A stretch of 64,000 bases of DNA from an uncultured Acidimicrobiia bacterium. GTDB taxonomy: Bacteria > Acidobacteriota > Terriglobia > Versatilivoradales > Versatilivoraceae. Under the pieces are notes generated by a model, which was given only the letters and a program-made list of their open reading frames with translations, did not search any database and was not told the origin of the DNA. Position 1 is the first letter of the stretch. Every line of letters starts with the position of its first letter. Below, piece by piece: positions 27,963 to 45,338 of this stretch. The DNA is taken from positions 992,001-1,056,000 of the forward strand of contig CAWBAT010000006.1 in the NCBI GenBank assembly GCA_963786955.1, in the 5' to 3' direction. The translations under genes and the position numbers were made by a program.

Positions 27963-28697
27963 TCAGCCCCCCAGAAGAATGGCCACGCCGACAAGCGCGA
28001 GCCCAATAGTGACCATTGCCAGACCGGCAACCAGGCGCTTCGTGTGAGCATACTGCGCCCACTTCTGCCCGACCAGGAAAAGCATCCCAATCAGGAGGAA
28101 GTTAGATACACGCAGTGCGACATTCGGTTTTGAGAAGATCAAGAACGGGACCGCTGCCGGCAGGCATGAGATAAAGACCAGCCAAAAACAAGCTAACGCT
28201 CCATAGAGGTCATCTTTCGTCAACCCCCCGGTCCTGACACTTTCCCCTTGAGCGGCGTGTTTGAGGATCGAACGATAAAGAGCTTCCCGGTCCTCGGGCG
28301 AGACTAGAGATTGGAATTCCGGATCGACCGCCTGTCGAACGAGATCCAGGGCCGTCTCGGAGTCTGGCGCACTTCGAATTTCCTGGAGGAGGCGTGCTCG
28401 CAGGCCACGCTCCGTGATGCAGTTCATGATATACATGATGGCGTCAATAATCCCCCAGGCGATATTGCATCCCAGCGCCGAGAGCAGCAACTGACGCACA
28501 CCCGCCTTACCCTCAGCTACCGTCAGCCCGGCGGTAAGAGTCGCCGTCAACACCATGATCAGCCCGAATAGAATTTCACCGAGCCGGCTGGCAGGGTCAA
28601 GGTACTTGCGAACAAAGCTTTCTTTATCTGGTTTATCGGTCACGGCCCGATCGCAGGACTCACCTGGCAAACTAAATAGAGAGGGGCTGGTCGTCAC
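27963..28697 (-). CDS. VIT1/CCC1-like membrane transporter
   Basis: LDPASRLGEILFGLIM, GCNIAWGIIDA and PAAVPFL motifs; five TM segments; true start may be GTG 28643. Confidence 0.7.
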   Translation of the reverse strand: MTTSPSLFSLPGESCDRAVTDKPDKESFVRKYLDPASRLGEILFGLIMVLTATLTAGLTVAEGKAGVRQLLLSALGCNIAWGIIDAIMYIMNCITERGLRARLLQEIRSAPDSETALDLVRQAVDPEFQSLVSPEDREALYRSILKHAAQGESVRTGGLTKDDLYGALACFWLVFISCLPAAVPFLIFSKPNVALRVSNFLLIGMLFLVGQKWAQYAHTKRLVAGLAMVTIGLALVGVAILLGG

Positions 28698-28700
28698 GCT

Positions 28701-28772
28701 GGTAGGGCGCGCACGCCGTGCGCGCCGCCATGCCCAAACTGGGGTCGGCGGTCTCAGCGAGACCGCCCTACC
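28701..28772. repeat. GTAG-type REP doublet
   Basis: ggtagggcgcgcacgccgtgcgcgcc ... ggcggtctcagcgagaccgccctacc. Confidence 0.75.
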
Positions 28773-28908
28773 TTACCCCCTGGAGTTCCCCATAACCAAG
28801 GGGGACATTCGCAGAGCGACACCAAAGCCAATTCTTTCACACTTTCCCCTTGAACAAGGGGGAACACAAGGGGGGTTACCCTCAATTCTCCACTTCAGTC
28901 AATCAATG

Positions 28909-29307
28909 TCACGACTTGCCCTTCAAAGCCTTGATGGCTCCCTTGACATCACTTAAACCGAGGACGACGAGTTGCCTTTTCGAGCCTTCTTCAGCTCCAC
29001 TGTAACTGTAGTTAATGTTGATGTCGGCGCTGGCCAGTTTTCTGGCAGCGCTCGCCAACGTCCCGGACTTGTTTTTCAGTACGATCCCTACGACTTCTGA
29101 CTCCGACACTTGCAAATTCAGACCCGCTAGGACCTCTTTGGCTTTGGCGGATTTGTCTGTTGCCAACCTTACCCTATTCTGCCCCTGCCCTTCCTCAGTA
29201 GTAAAGGCCAGGATATTCACTTTAGCTTTGGCTAGAGCTTCGCCCAAGCTGGCGAGTGTTCCCGGCTTGTTTTCAATCTGAACCGTCAACTCAGTCATTT
29301 TCCCCAT
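28909..29307 (-). CDS. tandem ACT domain protein
   Basis: 132 aa; ENKPGTLA..VNI and NKSGTLA..ININY repeats. Confidence 0.88.
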   Translation of the reverse strand: MGKMTELTVQIENKPGTLASLGEALAKAKVNILAFTTEEGQGQNRVRLATDKSAKAKEVLAGLNLQVSESEVVGIVLKNKSGTLASAARKLASADININYSYSGAEEGSKRQLVVLGLSDVKGAIKALKGKS

Positions 29308-29641
29308 GCTTTGCCCCCTCGAAAGTTAATATTGGACAAGACTCATCACTTGCAACAGACAACGTTATCTGACCCAAAAATGCGCGCGTGGCGCAGATTT
29401 ATTTTTTAGCTTAACTTTCGCACAATGGAAATATCTGGTTAATCTAAGACCACATATCTTCGTGTTGGAACTACCAGAAAGAAACCCAGGGCAACTTTAC
29501 ATTAGTATCTCATGAACAACGAAGCCAGAGCTGTAAGAATTGGCAGGTTATTGATTGAGGAGTTTCGGAATGTCGGCAGATTCTGCTGATCGCGTTGTGC
29601 TAGTCACACTTATTGGGCTCATGGGACTACCCCTTTCAGGT

Positions 29642-30109
29642 TTGTAGTCCCGGCTTCAGCCGGTCCCGATTATGGCCGCCGGAAGGCGGCACCTCGGGAT
29701 TGGACATTTGTTGGCACCCCGGATTCAGAAGCTGCGCAGGCTTCCAAGCTTTTATTGGTGGCACTATCGTTTCGTCATTTGAAAATAGGTTTACGAAGCG
29801 GTCATTTGCAGTCATTCAGACATCCAGCGGCCTGAAGGGCCGCTACAATCTAGCCCAGGGCAGAGCGCAGGGGCAAGGCCCCGCAACGCCGCCCTGGGTC
29901 ACGATCCCAATGAATCATCGGCGCCCTGAAGGGCGACAATCGGGACGAGAGGTGTGTTGCACCCCTTCAGGGTGCCCTTTCGTGGGTGACCTGTGACCCA
30001 GGGCGCTGCTCCGGGCTTCGCCCTCCACTCTGCCTGGGCTATTTTCTCTTGCCCTTTCAGGGCAGCGGAAATGTCCAATCTCCACGGCCGCCTGAAGGCA
30101 GTACTACAA
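29642..30109. repeat. nested repeat cluster (REP > TIR element > CCCTGAAGGG palindromes)
   Basis: Outer ttgtagtcccggcttcagccgg / ccgcctgaaggcagtactacaa; inner gattggacattt (29698) / aaatgtccaatc (30069); core of cctgaagggc/gcccaggg palindromes 29830-30063. Confidence 0.75.
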
Positions 30110-30116
30110 GCCTGGA

Positions 30117-32537
30117 TCAAAACGGCCACGTCCATTGATCGGCTTCCGGCTTATCGATGCCGTGCTCGTAGGCATAGCTCTGACACGCGATCTGCATGTT
30201 TCGCAGTTGATCCTTGGCATGAGCGCCGCATGCCTGCAGGCTAGGTACACGATCGATGACGTCGATCGCCAGGCTGAAACGATCGATCTGGTTCTGAATG
30301 GCCAGATCGAGCGGCGTGTTGATGTTGCCTTTCTCCTTGTAGCCGCGCACGTGCATGTTCTTGTGATTGGTTCTCCGGTAGGTCAGTCGATGGATCAACC
30401 AGGGATAACCGTGGAAGTTGAAAATAATCGGCTTGTCCACAGTGAACAGGCTATCGAAGTCGCGGTCCGAGAGCCCATGAGGGTGTTCCGTGGAGGGCGT
30501 CAATCTAAAGAGGTCCACCACGTTGACGAAACGGATCTTTAAATTGGGGAAGTGCTCCCGCAACAGCACCACCGCCGCGAGCGCCTCCTTGGTGGGGATG
30601 TCACCGGCACAGGCCATCACCACGTCTGGCTCGGTCCCCTCGTCATTACTCGCCTTCCGCCAAATGCCAATGCCCTTCGTACAGTGCGCGATGGCATCGT
30701 CCATGCTCAAGTACTGCAAATGTTTCTGCTTGTCGCAGACGATTACGTTGATGTAAATGGTGCTCCTCAAGCAGTGATTAGCCACGCTGAGGAGAGTATT
30801 TGCATCTGGCGGCAAATAGATGCGGCATACGTCCGGGCTCTTGTTCACCACCACGTCGAGGAAACCGGGATCCTGGTGGGTGAACCCATTGTGATCCTGG
30901 CGCCACACGGTGGAAGTAATGAGCAGGTTGAGCGACGAGACCGGCGGTCGCCACGGCAGCTGGCGGCAGATGGCAAGCCACTTGGCGTGCTGGTTAAACA
31001 TGGAATCGATGACGTGAACAAAAGCCTCATAAGTGGAGAAGAAGCCATGCCGTCCACTGAGCAGATAGCCTTCCAGCCAACCCTCCAGGGTATGTTCGGA
31101 AAGCATCTCCAGCACCCGCCCATCGCGCGACAGCTCGCCGCCATCGGCGTCCTCCGGCAAATAGTCAGCCAGCCACAGTTTCTTGCTCACCTCATAGATC
31201 GCATCGAGTTTATTCGACGTGTTTTCATCGGGACCGAAGACGCGGAAGTTTTCCATATTCTGGCGCATGATGTCCCGCAGGAAGCAACCGAGGGGACGCG
31301 TGTTTTCCGCTGAGGCCTGCCCTGGTTTCTCGACTTTGATGGCATAGTCGCGGAAGTCCGGTAGGCGCAGTGGCTTCCGCAGCAAGCCCCCATTGGCGTG
31401 GGGATTGGCCCCCATGCGCCGCGGTCCCTTAGGAGCCAGCGCCTTCAGTTCCGGGACCAGCCGCCCCTCTTGGTCGAACAGCTCCTCGGGTTTATAACTG
31501 CGCATCCAGTTCTCCAACTGTTTCAGATGGGCCGGATTGTCGCGTACTCCCGACAGGGGTACCTGGTGAGCGCGCCAGAAGCCTTCCACTTTGTGGCCGT
31601 CAACTTCCTTGGGCCCAGTCCAGCCTTTGGGACTGCGCAACACGATCATCGGCCAACGCGCCCGATTCGCTTTGCCACTCTTGCGCGCTTCCTGTTGGAT
31701 GCGACGAATCTCTAGCACGCAGCTCTCCAGTGTTGCGGCCATCGTCTGGTGCATCAACTCCGGATCGTTCCCTTCCACGAAATGAGGTGTCCATCCATAA
31801 CCCTTGAACAGGTTCTCCAGCTCTTCATGAGAGATTCGCGACAGCAAAGTGGGGTTATTGATCTTGTAACCATTGAGGTGCAGGACCGGGAGCACTGCAC
31901 CGTCTCGAATGGGATTCAGGAACTTATTGGAATGCCAGGAGGTGGCCAGCGGCCCAGTCTCCGATTCCCCGTCACCGACCACTACCGCCACCAGCAGCTC
32001 GGGGTTGTCGAAGGCAGCACCAAAAGCATGTGAGACGCTGTAGCCGAGTTCGCCCCCTTCATGGATGGAGCCCGGTGTCTCGGGCGTGCAGTGGCTGCCG
32101 ATGCCCCCTGGAAAAGAGAATTCCTTGAAGAACTCAAGCATCCCCTGCTCGTCCTCACCCTTGTTTGGGTAGATCTCGGAATACGCACCCTCCAGATAGA
32201 CCGGCGCCAGCACACCTGGTGCTCCGTGGCCAGGGCCGGCCAGAAAGATGGCGTCGAGATCGTACTTATTGATCAGACGATTCAGGTGAATGTAAGTAAA
32301 GCTCAAGCCGGGGCTTGCGCCCCAGTGACCCAACAGGCGCTGCTTGATGTGCTCCGGTTTCAAGGGCTCGCGGAGCAGAGGATTGGCGCGCAGATAGATC
32401 ATGCCGGCCGCCAGGAAATTGCAAGCCCGCCAGTAAGCATCAATCTTGCGGAGCTCTTCAGAGGACAGCCGGCCTTCGGGGCTTCTGCTAATACCTTTGG
32501 CCGTCTTCGCCTTCACATCGGCAGGTACACGTGTCAT
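30117..32537 (-). CDS. xfp: phosphoketolase (xylulose-5-P/fructose-6-P)
   Basis: 806 aa; [28 protein letters not shown] motif, [16 protein letters not shown]. Confidence 0.96.
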
Positions 32538-33023
32538 GAGTCATCCTCCATTTCCAAGTAATTCTTAATTGTTGAGCATTCAGTCAGCGGCAGGTCAGTC
32601 CTATCTGTTGACTTCATCGGCTTCAGGGGGCGTGGTTCGTCTCTTCCACGAAGAGAGAGTCAAAATGCATGATTATGCTAGAGATTGTGATTTTTCTTCT
32701 CGTCCTGCGCTACATCAATTTTCTCACACCAAGATTAACCAGATATTTCAGTGAAGTGAAAATTCAGTAAACTTTCCGTTAACATACCCACCGGATCTCA
32801 ATGGACTCAAATTGCGGCCGACACTCCAGCCGAGACTACATGTCCTTCGCACCCTGTAGGAGCTCGAAATGTAAACATTCCAGTCTGGAGATTGAGGTTC
32901 AAATGTGGGAGCCGAACAGCGACCGGCACTTCCGTCCAGTCACGGTCACGGTCTGGGGGTTACCTATTCCGCCAGTGTCACGTTAAAACACAGGGCTGGG
33001 AGCGATTCCTTCATCGCCTACAT

Positions 33024-34109
33024 CTAAACCTTCTTCCACAGAACATTGCTCTTGGAGGTGATCACCGCCATGAGTTTATTCCAGGACTTCAGGAATAATT
33101 TCATTCCTTCGTCCTGGAGTTGAGCACCCAAAACATCAACGTTGATGCCGCGTTTAGCGAACTGGGCAAAAACCTCTTCGCAATCGCCGCCGTCCGCCGG
33201 CATGATTTCGACCGGTTCATTGGAATCAGCAAGAGCCTTTAAAGTGGTCTCTGTCACTGTGTTCACCGTGACGGGTGCGGCAAGAGCCTTGATGTAGAAG
33301 AGATTGGATGCTTGCGAATCCCTGGTTCCCGAGTTGTCCCACAAGAGGCGCTGGGGACGGCCGCCGACGTTGTAAATGCGCTGCCAGCGCGGTGAAGTCA
33401 GCAAGGCACGGCAGGCCTTGTAGGTACGCCGGGCCATGGCAATGCCGAGTTGATTTCCAAGTGCGCTGGGTACCCTGTCTGCGACCGTGGCGTCCCAGCG
33501 GCTGACGAACACCGAAGCCACAGACCCAACATCGGGTTTCAGCCCGGCAGCGATGCGCCGCTCGATGCCGCGCAAGTAGGCGTCGGCAGCCGCCAGATAG
33601 TGCTCGCGTGAGAACAAGAGGGTCACGTTCACAGGGACTCCGGCAAAAATCGCCTCCTCAACAGCCGGCAAGCCTTCTGAGGTTCCTGGGATTTGAATTA
33701 AGATGTTGGGACGTTTTCCCCGGGCATACAAATTCTTGGCCGCGGCCAGGATGCCTGCTGTGTTTTGGGCGAGCAGAGGCGACAGCTTCAACGACACCCA
33801 ACCATCCACACCATTCGTTCGGTCGTAAATGGGCCTGAACAGGTCCGCGGCCTGGATCAGGTACTCTAGTGCCAGCTCAAAGAACAATTCCTCTGCCACT
33901 CTTCCTTTTTTGAGCTTCTTTACGATGGCCTCATCGTAGGTGCCATCATTCTTGATGACAGGAATGAAGTTCGTCGGGTCTGAAGTGAGGCCCGTTAAGA
34001 ACAATTTACTAATGTAACTCTTTAGCGCACCACTCTTCATCAAGTCTGGCGTGGCGTTGTGAAGCCACAGACTCTGCCCTAAATTGTGGAGCGTTTCAGT
34101 TGTTTTCAT
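33024..34109 (-). CDS. tal: transaldolase-like protein with substituted catalytic residues
   Basis: 361 aa, clear transaldolase fold motifs (GQSLWL, GLTS.PT.F, DGWVS, VNVTLLFS, SVASVFVSRWD, QRLLW) but D>H, N>D, E>K and K>Q at key positions. Confidence 0.85.
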   Translation of the reverse strand: MKTTETLHNLGQSLWLHNATPDLMKSGALKSYISKLFLTGLTSDPTNFIPVIKNDGTYDEAIVKKLKKGRVAEELFFELALEYLIQAADLFRPIYDRTNGVDGWVSLKLSPLLAQNTAGILAAAKNLYARGKRPNILIQIPGTSEGLPAVEEAIFAGVPVNVTLLFSREHYLAAADAYLRGIERRIAAGLKPDVGSVASVFVSRWDATVADRVPSALGNQLGIAMARRTYKACRALLTSPRWQRIYNVGGRPQRLLWDNSGTRDSQASNLFYIKALAAPVTVNTVTETTLKALADSNEPVEIMPADGGDCEEVFAQFAKRGINVDVLGAQLQDEGMKLFLKSWNKLMAVITSKSNVLWKKV

Positions 34110-34233
34110 AGAGTCATCTCAGTTCAAAGGTGCTTTTTCCAGCGGGACGAGGGCATCCCGGCTCCAGTTGGAGACGCCGCGCCCTCGCGGCGTATTCTTG
34201 CGGGAAGAGGTTTCCCCTTCTCCAGGCGATAGC

Positions 34234-35265
34234 TTAGTTCTTGTTAGACGAGACATCTGAAGACCATTGGTCGTCGGTGCGAATCCAGGTCTTGTCCGGG
34301 TTGTAAAGCTCCATGCTCTTGACGATGTTGAGCGAGTCAGGTCCCAAGTCTTTCTGATAAACGATGCCGTCATTGCTCACCAAAAAGGTCTTGACCCCTG
34401 TCACACGGTATTCAGCCGGAACGGCAACCAGAGCAAATCCGCCGATCATGATTCCTTTGATCACATAATCGAGCTGGCCGAGTGGCGCCGCCGGACCTTG
34501 CCCTTTCAATACCTTAAAATAGTAACCGTGGTAGCCAGACCGTACGCTTGTGGAATAGCCCTCCTCGATTGCCTTCGCAACCAGCTCGCTGATGGGCCCA
34601 CCGGCTGTGCCGTCTGCGTTTTGCCAGTACAAACCGTCCCGTTTTCCGGGAGTGCTGATGACCTTTTGGGCGTATTGGTGGACCCCCGAATTGTCATGTA
34701 TTTCCGAGGCATAATCTTGTTGTGCCTCCACGAAGCCATGACAGATTTGGATTGCATCCAGCTCGTTAGTTCCGATTCGCCTGAAGAGGATTTCGTCGCG
34801 GCCTTCCTTTGAATTGAAATACCACTTGCCCCCTTTTTTAACGATTGGAACCGGAAAAGGCCAATCCTCCTTGCCTATCACAAGGATAGCTCGGGCTGGG
34901 TTCTTCGGGTCTACGCTGACCGTATTCTTTTCGTGCGCCTTGGCAGCAAATGCTTCGGCATAGTTTTTATCCTGGACCGGGTCGGCAGAGGACACAAAAT
35001 CTTCTCCCTCTGGACCGAATATTGCCAATAAGACCGGTTTATTATAAGGATCTGCTGCCTGAATCAACGCCTCCACCGCTTGTTGCGGCGTATCGAAAGC
35101 TTTTTGTGCGGGTTGTGATGGCACAGGGGCATTCTCTTTCGACTGCGCCCATGCGTGAGAAACGCTGGCCAAAGCGCAGGAAAGGACCGCAATTCCAATG
35201 GAGGGGAGAGCACGCTGCGCAATAATCTTCCATGTCTTTAATCTCATGTCATTATCCTCAGTCAT
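34234..35265 (-). CDS. DUF2950 domain protein (secreted)
   Basis: WPFPVPIV, RRIGTNEL, RDGLYW, YHGYYFK, GFALVAVPAEY and VYQKDLG motifs. Confidence 0.9.
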   Translation of the reverse strand: MTEDNDMRLKTWKIIAQRALPSIGIAVLSCALASVSHAWAQSKENAPVPSQPAQKAFDTPQQAVEALIQAADPYNKPVLLAIFGPEGEDFVSSADPVQDKNYAEAFAAKAHEKNTVSVDPKNPARAILVIGKEDWPFPVPIVKKGGKWYFNSKEGRDEILFRRIGTNELDAIQICHGFVEAQQDYASEIHDNSGVHQYAQKVISTPGKRDGLYWQNADGTAGGPISELVAKAIEEGYSTSVRSGYHGYYFKVLKGQGPAAPLGQLDYVIKGIMIGGFALVAVPAEYRVTGVKTFLVSNDGIVYQKDLGPDSLNIVKSMELYNPDKTWIRTDDQWSSDVSSNKN

Positions 35266-35273
35266 GGTTTGGT

Positions 35274-36686
35274 TTACCTCCTTCTCCCGCCGCCGCCACC
35301 TCTCCCGCCGCCACCCCCGCCGCCTCGGGAGCCTCCCATACTGGAAGAACCTCGCTGGCTGCTGCTGCGAGCGGCACTTCCGCTCACACCACTCGAAGCG
35401 CCACTGAAGGCGCTACGATTTGTGGAGCTTGGTGATCTTGGAACATCTCGATTGCCGACGCGGTCTCCGCCTCCGCCAGAAGCAGTTCTGCCGCCACCGC
35501 GGTCCATCGAACCAGCCTGCTGCCTGCCGCCTCCACCGCCGCGATCCATGGTACCAGCCTGAGCCCCACCACCCGCTCTTGCCTGTTGCTGGCGCGCACT
35601 GGCCTGTCGGTTGGCCATGGAGTCTCCTCGCGTCGTTCCCCCAAATTTATTGGCCGTCGCTCTGTCTCCGTACGGAGCGCCACCGCGGTGCTGCGGGTTA
35701 TGTTGCCATTGGTTACCACCGCCGCGGTTGCCCTGGGGATTGACTCGGTTGCCGCCATTGATGTTGGTGTTACGGTTGAAATTGTTGTTCCTGTTGACGG
35801 TGATGTCATTGTGCCCCCAACCGCAGCCCCAGCCGCCGCCCCAGGCGGCCCCTATCGCCAATCCAACTCCGAAAGAGATCGCCATGCCTGCGGCGTAATA
35901 CCCGTAAGGCGGATAATAAATTGGAGGATAAGGATAGATGGCCGCGCCATAGACTACTGTGGGGTTGTAACTGGGAACATAAATGACTTCCGGATTGGCC
36001 TGCTCGATGACGATCACCTGCTTATTTTCGACGACCTTGGTCTCCACCTTTTGTTGCTCGGTGGATTTCAGGTTCCCCGTGCCCTCGGCCTTCTTGCGCA
36101 TGCGTTGCACAGCCTCCATCACATCACTCTGTTGCGCCAGAACTGCATTTCCCAGGTCGGCGGTCCATTGAATGTCATCCGCAAGTCGTTTCACCACGTC
36201 TGGCAGCGCCGCCATGGCTTGGACGCTCGGGTCCCAATTCTGCTTCTGCACTGCATCCACCAGCGCCTTGTCTTTCAGGTTCTTGTTCTTTGCCAGCCAC
36301 TGTTGAAGCTGGACGATTTCCAGAGGATAAGTGGACGCCGCAAGTACCTGGGCCAACAGCGGATCTGGATAGAGCGCGATGGGCGCAACCAGGGAATCCA
36401 ATTGATCGTTGGAGAGCTTCGCGGCTCCTTCGGTTGCAGCCGGTTGTTGTTGGACCTGCTGTGCCAAAATGATCAACTCGCCAGGCACTAGCAGCACAGC
36501 ACAGAGCAAGGCAACCAGGACACGAAAAGTCCCAGTCGGAATTCGAAATGGGGACCCTTCAGCATACCTGGCTTTTGCCCCCGTTCGTCCGCCAGTTGGG
36601 CATTTCAGAATGAACATCTCGCACCGGCCTCTCGATGAGCGGTTCATTGGCATGGAATAGACGGCAGGCTCTACGCTTGTTGCCAC
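35274..36686 (-). CDS. DUF3300 domain protein with Gly/Arg-rich tail
   Basis: LDSLVAPIALYPDPLL, WDPSVQA, YVPSYNP..VYG and WQHNPQHRGG motifs; start codon uncertain. Confidence 0.9.
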   Translation of the reverse strand: MATSVEPAVYSMPMNRSSRGRCEMFILKCPTGGRTGAKARYAEGSPFRIPTGTFRVLVALLCAVLLVPGELIILAQQVQQQPAATEGAAKLSNDQLDSLVAPIALYPDPLLAQVLAASTYPLEIVQLQQWLAKNKNLKDKALVDAVQKQNWDPSVQAMAALPDVVKRLADDIQWTADLGNAVLAQQSDVMEAVQRMRKKAEGTGNLKSTEQQKVETKVVENKQVIVIEQANPEVIYVPSYNPTVVYGAAIYPYPPIYYPPYGYYAAGMAISFGVGLAIGAAWGGGWGCGWGHNDITVNRNNNFNRNTNINGGNRVNPQGNRGGGNQWQHNPQHRGGAPYGDRATANKFGGTTRGDSMANRQASARQQQARAGGGAQAGTMDRGGGGGRQQAGSMDRGGGRTASGGGGDRVGNRDVPRSPSSTNRSAFSGASSGVSGSAARSSSQRGSSSMGGSRGGGGGGGRGGGGGRRR

Positions 36687-36913
36687 GTCTTTGCTCCTTT
36701 CATTTCCTCAACTTCGTAGTCAGTCCATCCAATTTGAAAGGCCTCATAGAGAACAAGTAACCTAATAAGGCAGTTTCAAGTGGTGGCCGAGTGGAAAACC
36801 ATCATCACAGAATCATTGAGGAAGATTCTTAAGTCAGCCATTGTCAATGAATCCGCGAGGCCCTCTCTTCCAATAGGAAAAAACCACGCCAGGTTCAAAG
36901 GACATTGTGCTTA

Positions 36914-37251
36914 TCAGTGGCGATGGCGGCGTTTGACCTTCAACTGTGCCAGCGAACGAGTTAAACTGGCATTGATGGAAGCCACTTCTTCGGCAGAAAT
37001 CTTTTCGCGCAGTCGGGCTTCGGCACGTCGACGCGCTTCTTCGACCTTTGCTTCGTCGATCCTTTCGGCGCAATCGCCATATCCGTAAGGATAGCTACCC
37101 GGTCTCCTGTGATTTCGACAAGCTCCTCGCCCACAGCGAAAAAATCATCGTGACCGTTTTTGCGAATAATGATCTCGCCTGGCACCATCGGTGTCATCAA
37201 CCGGATGTACTCTGGCAGAATCCCCCATCTGGCCCTCCAGGGCACGGCAGA
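36914..37251 (-). pseudogene. atpC: ATP synthase epsilon subunit remnant (second copy)
   Basis: GILPEYIRLMT..GEIIIRK..DRVAILTDMA|ERIDEAKVEEARRRAEARL..LAQLKVKRR; N-terminus missing, frame breaks. Confidence 0.8.
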
Positions 37252-37630
37252 TGAAATGATACTTCAGTTCCAATTGAACTGAGAACCAAAATATCAGTCG
37301 AGCTTGCTCGCTTGACAAAAGCCCCCGAGATTGCTTGCGGGTCAGAAATCTCAATCCCCGAACAAAACACTAAGGGGGGAGAGGGAGCTATCCACTCCCC
37401 TGTGGCCCCCCCTTGTGCAAGGGGAGCAAATCCTACCTTGTCCCCCATTGCACACAGGGGGGGGACTTTAGGGGGGTCCACCTTCGGGAGGAGGGTCCCA
37501 GCAGGCGCTGGTTGTGGTGAACGCCACCGCCGCGAGGAGCGCGGTGACAAAGAGGTTTTGGCAGCGGTTGTTCTTCGTTGTCTTCTCCTATCAGTGAGTG
37601 TTGGGAAAAAATGATTCTCTTGACGACGCT

Positions 37631-38095
37631 TTATTTATTCATTGGCGCCGCAGAGCGCGGTTCTAACCCGGTTTTTCTTTGTATTTCTTTGCTGATCCAT
37701 CGGCTGACGAACGCGAAGAAAAGACCGGTCGAGAGCCCGCACATGAGAATACCGGTCAGTGCCTCAATCGGCGCGAACATCCGCCACGGCTTGGGCAACA
37801 CGAGATCGCCGTAGCCAACGGTCGTGTAGGTGACTCCGGAAAAATAGAATGCGGTCTCGGCATCGGGCAGACAGCCCTGCCAGAAATAAAATAGCCCCCA
37901 GATAGAAATCTCGACCAAGTGGATCAGAATCAGCCAGCTCGTCAAGCCGATCACCCACCGGGTGACGGGGCGGAAGCCCGACGTGGCCAGGGTGTGCGAC
38001 CGCATCATAGCCCGGAGCAGCCTGGCAAATCCGACGGCATGTATGACCACCGTGATAGCCACCAGCAAACAGGCGCTGAGAATTTTTATGAGCAT
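37631..38095 (-). CDS. potassium channel pore-domain protein (Ion_trans_2-like)
   Basis: 154 aa; AFYFSGVTYTTVGYGD selectivity filter. Confidence 0.9.
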   Translation of the reverse strand: MLIKILSACLLVAITVVIHAVGFARLLRAMMRSHTLATSGFRPVTRWVIGLTSWLILIHLVEISIWGLFYFWQGCLPDAETAFYFSGVTYTTVGYGDLVLPKPWRMFAPIEALTGILMCGLSTGLFFAFVSRWISKEIQRKTGLEPRSAAPMNK

Positions 38096-43918: not shown

Positions 43919-45324
<1,406 letters not shown>

Positions 45325-45338
45325 GGTGCACTCTTTCG

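Follow-up and report, generated by a model that had tools for sequence, protein, structure and literature searches.

What becomes of a transaldolase when the residues that do the chemistry are gone and the gene is nevertheless kept? The question is raised by a gene, here called tal*, in a 64,000-nucleotide stretch of DNA (the window; contig CAWBAT010000006.1, positions 992,001 to 1,056,000) from an uncultured bacterium of the Acidobacteriota. The original prediction, made from the nucleotide sequence, was of an intact transaldolase homologue with its whole catalytic set replaced, hence a pseudoenzyme or a protein of new activity, perhaps working with the phosphoketolase encoded beside it. The comparisons described here indicate that tal* is real and conserved, and that one lineage has put the transaldolase fold to another use. 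Selection maintains it as a paralogue of the subfamily-III (Corynebacterium glutamicum / Neisseria gonorrhoeae type) transaldolase, and, judged by its residues, it cannot act as a Schiff-base transaldolase. The favoured reading, to which we give a probability of about 0.5, is that it is a non-catalytic ligand-binding protein re-using the old pocket.

An intact gene with a replaced catalytic set

The open reading frame (ORF) of tal* is full-length, as had been claimed, with 361 codons and zero internal stops. Its product scores 187.7 bits against Pfam TAL_FSA (PF00923), with the profile covered almost completely, and is alignable end to end with the N. gonorrhoeae transaldolase (3clm, 7bbw, 7oey; E ~2e-53) and over its full length with that of C. 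glutamicum (3r5e; E 9e-50). When aligned residue by residue to the solved N. gonorrhoeae enzyme (3clm/7bbw), the five motif replacements that had been noticed are borne out: WLHN stands opposite WLDN (Asp to His17), TSDPT opposite TSNPA (Asn to Asp44), VSLKL opposite VSLEV (Glu to Lys108), IQIP opposite IKVP (Lys to Gln139) and LWDNSG opposite LWASTG (Ala-Ser to Asp258-Asn259). The two codon positions given in advance, 33786-33788 and 33693-33695, proved exact. The gene and the replaced codons are as follows, the Escherichia coli TalB residues named being those that we take to be equivalent.

33024..34109, minus strand, stop codon included: tal* (P0001), transaldolase-fold paralogue of 361 amino acids, assigned by its ORF, Pfam TAL_FSA, alignment to Protein Data Bank (PDB) entries and an AlphaFold2 (AF2) model
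34059..34061, minus strand: His17 codon, CAC, replacing the catalytic Asp (TalB Asp17), C-terminal end of strand 1
33978..33980, minus strand: Asp44 codon, GAC, replacing Asn (TalB Asn35), just past strand 2
33786..33788, minus strand: Lys108 codon, AAG, replacing the acid/base Glu (TalB Glu96), end of strand 3
33693..33695, minus strand: Gln139 codon, CAA, replacing the Schiff-base Lys (TalB Lys132), strand 4
33333..33338, minus strand: Asp258-Asn259 codons, GAC AAC (33336..33338 and 33333..33335 respectively), replacing Ala-Ser of the WASTG loop, end of strand 7

All six replacements are at single-nucleotide distance from the canonical codon. The matching of TalB residue numbers and roles (Asp17, Asn35, Glu96, Lys132) to tal* columns is our assumption, with which the titles of TalB mutant structures in the Foldseek output (D17A, N35A, E96A, T156A, S176A) are consistent. 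No change is seen in tal* at the substrate-binding positions Asn161, Thr163, Ser199 and Arg204, whose residues are also conserved across its clade; mapped by motif, they presumably correspond to TalB Asn154/Thr156, Ser176 and the phosphate Arg181, and in TalB the WASTG-loop region (258-259 of tal*) is the part that we take to bind the substrate phosphate. The replacement, in other words, is of the catalytic set and does not extend to the whole pocket.

Transaldolases react through a Schiff base on the Lys, with Asp, Glu and Lys forming the catalytic centre (PMC7092467). The hallmarks missing from tal* are the Schiff-base Lys, the strand-1 Asp, the strand-3 Glu and the Asn after strand 2, while fold and binding residues are present. 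A fructose-6-phosphate aldolase (FSA) is marked by the Schiff-base Lys, a Gln in place of the Glu and a Tyr in the active site; this combination is likewise lacking, the Lys at 139 being missing and position 108 being Lys, not Gln.

Are the changes really concentrated in the active site, as had been proposed, or is tal* simply a divergent protein? Among 197 columns whose conservation across 85 canonical relatives is 98% or more, tal* deviates at 5 of the 9 active-site columns vs 26 of the 188 others (Fisher one-sided p = 0.006), with the caveat that the nine follow work on E. coli TalB and that four of them also served to define the canonical set. The concentration is there. The same four residues (Asp, Asn, Glu and Lys, abbreviated D/N/E/K) were surveyed in 148 distinct coding sequences cut from loci; from 70% down to 30% identity they are kept in the ~138 full-length homologues from outside the clade, except for two without the Lys (L061 and L158). 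[In a set of homologues at 57-61% identity (L135, L146, L147, L152, L153, L159, L151, L053, L055, L058, L163 and L169) D/N/E/K is kept and the WASTGxK loop has become S/V/A-D/G/A-T-V, which suggests a changed phosphate-binding site; at least L053, L055, L058 and L061 are on Desulfobacterales-type contigs.]

Fold and family models

By Pfam, AF2 and Foldseek alike tal* has the TAL_FSA TIM-barrel fold. The AF2 model, built from an 80-row alignment, has a mean predicted local distance difference test (pLDDT) score of 93.2, the loop at 261-270 (block mean 65) being its sole less confident part, and superimposes in Foldseek on 3clm, 7oey and 3r5e with template-modelling (TM) scores of 0.91-0.94 and root-mean-square deviations (rmsd) of 1.7-2.0 A. 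The changed residues are located in the model at, or just past, the C-terminal ends of strands 1 (His17), 2 (Asp44), 3 (Lys108) and 4 (Gln139), with Asp258/Asn259 at or just past that of strand 7, and Thr286, also changed, at strand 8. As modelled, then, they occupy the catalytic face of the barrel.

The family models for the enzymes themselves are not satisfied: NCBIfam NF002881 gives 361.9 bits, under its curated cut-off of 367, and TIGR00876 gives 213.2 bits, under its cut-off of 233.75. TIGR00875 (fsa_talC_mipB) gives 30.8 bits vs a cut-off of 245.95.

A clade and the order of its changes

That a clade sharing the substitutions might exist had been offered as a check, and there is one. In the best 120 proteins of 8000 scored candidates, position 139 is Gln in 34 and Lys in 86. 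The full His/Asp/Lys/Gln (HDKQ) set together with Asp258 is present in 15 of the 120 (81-100% identical, the query and two fragments being counted), 14 of these 15 also having Asn259. A further 19, which are 71-78% identical, have the Lys to Gln change only. D/N/E/K is found in 85, and one protein has Tyr at position 17. A further homologue search among protein cluster representatives gave no relatives closer than these, and matches in the ESM Atlas were only to clusters named 'transaldolase family protein'.

In a maximum-likelihood tree of 72 rows, from which the seven trait columns had been removed, the Gln-bearing rows form one clade of 33 (the Q clade; support 100/100, stem 0.16 changes/site) nested among canonical acidobacterial transaldolases. 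Within it the HDKQ rows form one clade of 13 (support 100/100, stem 0.125), and Glu108Lys is a single change on the tree. By this topology the Schiff-base Lys was lost once, and first; the other catalytic residues changed afterwards, in a single sub-lineage. The sole Lys-bearing row in the Q clade, P0046, was considered as a Gln to Lys revertant and rejected as a chimera: from residue 157 to 361 it matches P0025 exactly, and all 42 differences between the two are within residues 1-156, which look canonical-type. Mis-assembly would account for it, as would gene conversion involving the two paralogues.

After the loss of the Lys, the former catalytic positions did not stay put. Across the sub-lineages of the Q clade position 44 is N/S/D, 108 is E/G/A/K, 161 is N/H, 258 is A/G/T/D and 259 is S/N/G, whereas these positions are invariant in canonical homologues, even at identities as low as 30%; such variability would be predicted once selection has ceased to act on catalysis. 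Within the HDKQ clade, by contrast, none of the six new residues varies among the 15 members (Asn259 being present in 14 of 15). However, this is weak evidence of constraint on those particular residues, either way, because at such divergence 216 of the 361 columns are at least 95% conserved and six average sites would all be invariant ~5% of the time.

Selection on the gene

A ratio of nonsynonymous to synonymous change (dN/dS, or omega) near 1 would be expected of a decaying gene, and this is not what is seen. By the Nei-Gojobori method (NG86), 14 of 15 HDKQ pairs, at dS 0.29-0.73, give an omega of 0.10-0.18; the remaining one is near-identical (dS 0.004, omega 1.3) and uninformative. Gln-only sequences give 0.12 in two diverged pairs, and 0.03 in a third, near-identical pair. 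For canonical relatives the range is 0.05-0.15 (the 25 lowest-dN pairs among 13 sequences), except for three low-dS pairs at 0.18-0.40. One-ratio maximum-likelihood (ML) estimates are 0.153 for six HDKQ sequences, 0.150 for all nine Q-clade sequences and 0.086 for nine canonical ones. An omega of 0.15 in the tal* clade implies that the gene is constrained, and the estimates together point clearly to purifying selection that is somewhat weaker than on the parental gene. Synonymous variants are found at two of the new codons (GAC/GAT at 44 and AAC/AAT at 259), and codon 139 is CAA in the inner HDKQ clade vs CAG in the Gln-only clade.

The original argument against random decay is thereby upheld: the gene is intact, its changes are clade-wide and its omega is 0.15. 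Two of the features looked for in a pseudoenzyme are found here, the catalytic residues being gone and the gene having persisted under purifying selection across two genera and 34 Gln-bearing cluster representatives.

Distribution and the canonical paralogue

How widespread is tal*, and does an ordinary transaldolase accompany it? A match at E <= 1e-120 is present in 53 of 401 genomes sampled from the class (a count that includes G293, G096 and G389, which are unpublished and whose matches are 61-66% identical), and only three exceed 70% identity. These three carriers are the window's own genome (G000), one of the same genus (G003; 93%) and one of a second genus in the same family (G001; 76%, Gln-only). 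The group of uncultured bacteria that keeps the gene, from soil and sediment, is small. A canonical D/N/E/K paralogue, 65-69% identical to tal*, coexists with it on the same contig in all three carriers. That of the window's genome lies outside the window.

G000:C6:1089104-1090148, minus strand: canonical paralogue (WLDN, TSNPT, SLEV, IKIP, LWASTG), beside phosphoglucomutase

As assembled, this paralogue is split into two ORFs by one extra base (L039:9341) after '...TKDPQAS'. Loss of the canonical transaldolase in G000 was accordingly considered and rejected as unproven. In three short-read metagenome runs, X1-X3, the extra base is missing from the one contig per run that spans the site (97-98% alike; the runs contain no more than 0.25 of the words of the searched stretch and so represent relatives, not the window's strain); in a fourth run, X4, the identical contig ends at L039 position 9340. 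The gene for the ATP synthase beta subunit (atpD; window 43928..45336, minus strand) is spread over three frames, with breaks near 44738 and 45210, by comparison with the intact orthologue of G003. Two breaks in one essential gene are a sign that the assembly has single-base indel errors, and since X1-X3 lack the extra base and atpD is similarly split, the frameshift in the canonical paralogue is most likely an assembly error also.

The window's genome has in addition a third, distant TAL_FSA protein. It keeps the Lys (IIKLPAT), with WINNP in place of the transaldolase WLDN and AIQGNP in place of SLEV, a Gln-for-Glu pattern that recalls fructose-6-phosphate aldolases.

G000:C4:389405-390136 (L003:1291-2373, minus strand): third TAL_FSA protein, 360 amino acids, 70.6 bits

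Gene neighbourhood

The genes and spacer around tal* are these.

30117..32537, minus strand: xfp, phosphoketolase of 806 amino acids (XFP_N/XFP/XFP_C), same-strand neighbour of tal*, 486 bp downstream
32538..33023, minus strand: tal*-xfp intergenic region, poorly conserved apart from ~60 nt before the xfp start
34234..36686, minus strand: DUF3300 gene (35274..36686) and DUF2950 gene (34234..35265), directly upstream of tal*

The original prediction attached weight to the adjacent phosphoketolase. The adjacency stands as the usual arrangement: in five of seven assessable loci (the window, L093, G001, L097 and L098) xfp is the next gene after tal*, about 490-770 bp further on and in the same orientation, and for the Gln-only clade it is so in 3 of 3 (L094 and L095 are too short for the downstream gene to be assessed). 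It is not obligate, however. In G003 tal* is followed by a LOG-family gene and a cytochrome gene, xfp being found next to the canonical tal cluster at a distance of ~85 kb, and in L096 it is followed by a glutaminase-like ORF.

Within the spacer, the ~60 nt just before the xfp start (window 32538..32600, minus strand) are conserved in five loci (the window, L093, L037, L097 and L098) and are possibly an xfp leader or operator; the rest is not conserved, which makes it probable that tal* and xfp are separate transcription units. An Rfam search of 28000..38000, with E up to 0.1, gave only a chance miRNA match and none in the tal*-xfp spacer. A simple promoter and terminator scan of 32300..34400 yielded no promoter-like and no minus-strand terminator-like site, and one plus-strand terminator-like site, the promoter and terminator results both being within shuffle expectation.

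The DUF3300 and DUF2950 genes are upstream of tal* in all five HDKQ-clade loci having upstream DNA, though among such close relatives this conservation may be only inherited synteny. [On the downstream side of xfp, at ~0.8 kb, the window (28909..29307, minus strand) encodes a small stand-alone protein with two ACT domains that has a conserved counterpart in G003 (93% over 92 residues).]

G003:C13:372450-374848 (L036:12451-14852), minus strand: G003 xfp, with the same error signature, probably not a pseudogene

The suggestion that this copy, from the sister species, is a pseudogene was rejected: five single-base C/G insertions set it apart from the window's xfp, and it has zero stops when read in register.

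Where did the duplicate come from? In G001 the order is the atp operon, talQ, xfp, two unknown genes, glgP (glycogen phosphorylase), pgm (phosphoglucomutase), canonical tal and pgi (glucose-6-phosphate isomerase), and in other genomes too (L047, L118, L123, L196) canonical tal is a few kb from xfp. These arrangements place the origin of the duplicate inside a glycogen-to-phosphoketolase cluster; the linkage of tal* to xfp may just be inherited from the parental gene.

What tal* may do

The course of events is that the transaldolase gene was duplicated within the glycogen-to-phosphoketolase carbon cluster, that the Schiff-base Lys first became Gln, founding the Q clade, and that one sub-lineage then gained Asp17His, Asn44Asp, Glu108Lys, Ala258Asp and Ser259Asn. 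The pocket of tal* would now take up a sugar or sugar phosphate as its small polar ligand and form no covalent bond with it, and the protein would act in central carbon metabolism as a non-catalytic sensor, buffer or partner protein. It is read as a ligand binder since the barrel and Asn161, Thr163, Ser199 and Arg204 are kept. The persistence under selection of the Gln-only state, without a replacement Lys and with the catalytic positions wandering, argues for a function independent of the old catalytic machinery. From these features we infer that tal* binds a ligand, of what kind, and that it is non-catalytic.

Several observations weigh against this. Asp258 and Asn259 (joined in 4 of the 15 HDKQ members by Asp263) are in the loop which in TalB binds the substrate phosphate, so the old ligand mode is disfavoured and the ligand may no longer be the ancestral sugar phosphate. 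The six residues invariant in the HDKQ clade could equally be a new catalytic set, and omega for the tal* clade is ~1.7x that of canonical relatives. Finally, G002, a 95% complete genome from a third species in the genus, has xfp and neither tal* nor a close canonical copy (its only transaldolase is 38% identical), and tal* is therefore dispensable in close kin.

Might tal* instead be a new enzyme? Lys108 on strand 3 would then do the work once done by Lys139 of strand 4, either forming the Schiff base or serving as electrophilic catalyst. His17, Asp44 and Asp258 would supply the acid/base groups, for a different aldolase, isomerase or epimerase activity on a phosphoketolase or pentose-phosphate metabolite. 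As the main rival this is possible, though on balance unlikely. Glu108Lys with Lys139Gln, and Asp17His with Asn44Asp, do resemble charge swaps between adjoining strand ends; the changed residues all face the catalytic side of the barrel (strands 1, 2, 3, 4 and 7); the six residues are invariant with synonymous variation at two codons; and the stem before the HDKQ clade is long (0.125). However, the Lys was lost first, and 19 living Gln-only proteins, in which position 108 is not Lys, are themselves constrained by purifying selection (omega 0.12), so the intermediate state functioned without such a nucleophile; in other Q-clade members position 108 is Gly or Ala, which resembles relaxed constraint. 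A version in which the active site of a class I aldolase barrel was re-wired, to a strand-3 Lys with a His17/Asp44/Asp258 set, and the Gln-only relatives represent a non-catalytic intermediate, the new enzyme working on a substrate or product of the phosphoketolase pathway, is doubtful. Lower again in our estimation, and improbable, is a role as partner or regulator of Xfp, by which tal* would bind Xfp or sense fructose 6-phosphate (F6P), xylulose 5-phosphate (X5P) or erythrose 4-phosphate (E4P) and so tune flux. The frequent position of xfp directly downstream speaks for it, as does the whole G001 cluster, which is one of glycogen-to-phosphoketolase metabolism. It is hard to square with the distance to xfp in G003, where tal* is 93% identical, with the glutaminase-like ORF of L096, with a G002 that has xfp without tal*, with a spacer that suggests separate transcription units and with a linkage that canonical tal may have bequeathed. 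[A predicted complex of tal* with Xfp residues 1-630, the Xfp C-terminal domain being omitted, had a score of 0.00, which is no answer and counts neither way.]

That tal* is still a transaldolase, carrying out the same reaction through other residues, is very improbable: the fold and Asn161/Thr163/Ser199/Arg204 are kept and the location would be useful for the phosphoketolase pathway, but the Schiff-base Lys and the catalytic Asp and Glu are all gone, and a canonical copy is at hand in 3 of 3 genomes. It is scarcely credible that tal* is a young pseudogene or an artefact of assembly or sequencing. The assembly does have single-base indel errors (atpD over three frames, one added base in canonical tal). 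Against both, the ORF is intact in the window and in every one of the 34 Gln-bearing cluster representatives, drawn as these are from several sources; the same six replacements recur in 15 representatives; and omega is 0.15 over dS of up to 0.7. The non-catalytic ligand binder is the reading retained.

Its significance is partly practical. The sources that name tal* and its relatives label them 'transaldolase', and pathway reconstructions would consequently count a pentose-phosphate enzyme that is almost certainly not one. Beyond that, the clade is an unusually clean series, from the canonical state through loss of the Lys to full rebuilding of the pocket, with all three states living and under selection, and the active paralogue in the same genome provides a control for studies of fold re-use.

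Comparison with known systems

Subfamily-III transaldolases (3r5e, 3clm; NF002881/TIGR00876) have the same length, TIM barrel, binding residues and sugar-phosphate neighbourhood as tal*, which is 31% identical to the solved structures of the subfamily and 65-70% identical to canonical acidobacterial paralogues. Unlike them, tal* lacks the Schiff-base Lys, Asp, Glu and Asn, has Asp-Asn in the WASTG loop and falls below the NCBIfam cut-offs. That active-site changes in this fold can alter the reaction is known from FSA (subfamily V) and from the engineered TalB variants E96Q and F178Y (4rz5, 3cwn, 4rz6); however, FSA and those variants keep the Schiff-base Lys, and tal* does not.

Another parallel is with dead-paralogue pseudoenzymes, such as the 'prozyme' partners of S-adenosylmethionine decarboxylase (AdoMetDC) in trypanosomatids. 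Prozyme-type pseudoenzymes and tal* are both duplicates without catalytic residues, under purifying selection, with an active paralogue coexisting. The subfamily-III transaldolase of C. glutamicum is reported to be a monomer (PMC7092467), so that a heteromer of tal* with its active paralogue is not an obvious model.

Full-text literature searches, subscription journals being outside their scope, found no description of a lysine-less transaldolase homologue. Is tal* then alone? Among the 88 full-coverage representatives of 50%-identity clusters nearest the query, the Lys is missing at the aligned site in 31, or ~27 when four frame-shifted calls are subtracted, though counts of cluster representatives over-weight divergent lineages. 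Many of the lysine-less representatives have Glu at the Lys site and Pro, Ala or Gly at the Glu site. Thirteen of the 14 submitted are below the NCBIfam transaldolase cut-off, the exception being P0122, which is HAD-fused. Both lysine-less fused forms examined, P0122 and P0130, have HAD-type phosphatase domains; in the four Lys-bearing fused forms with an identified extra domain, it is RpiB, ROK-like or kinase-like. The ~27 are a sizeable part of the subfamily's representatives and suggest that a class of proteins with the transaldolase fold, but with roles other than that of a transaldolase, has gone unrecognised. Other lysine-less proteins from metagenomes (P0122, P0125, P0163, P0187, P0227) have the same subfamily fold as tal* and are 35-54% identical to it, with other residue sets, and the loss of the Lys in tal* is independent and recent, nested among canonical acidobacterial enzymes.

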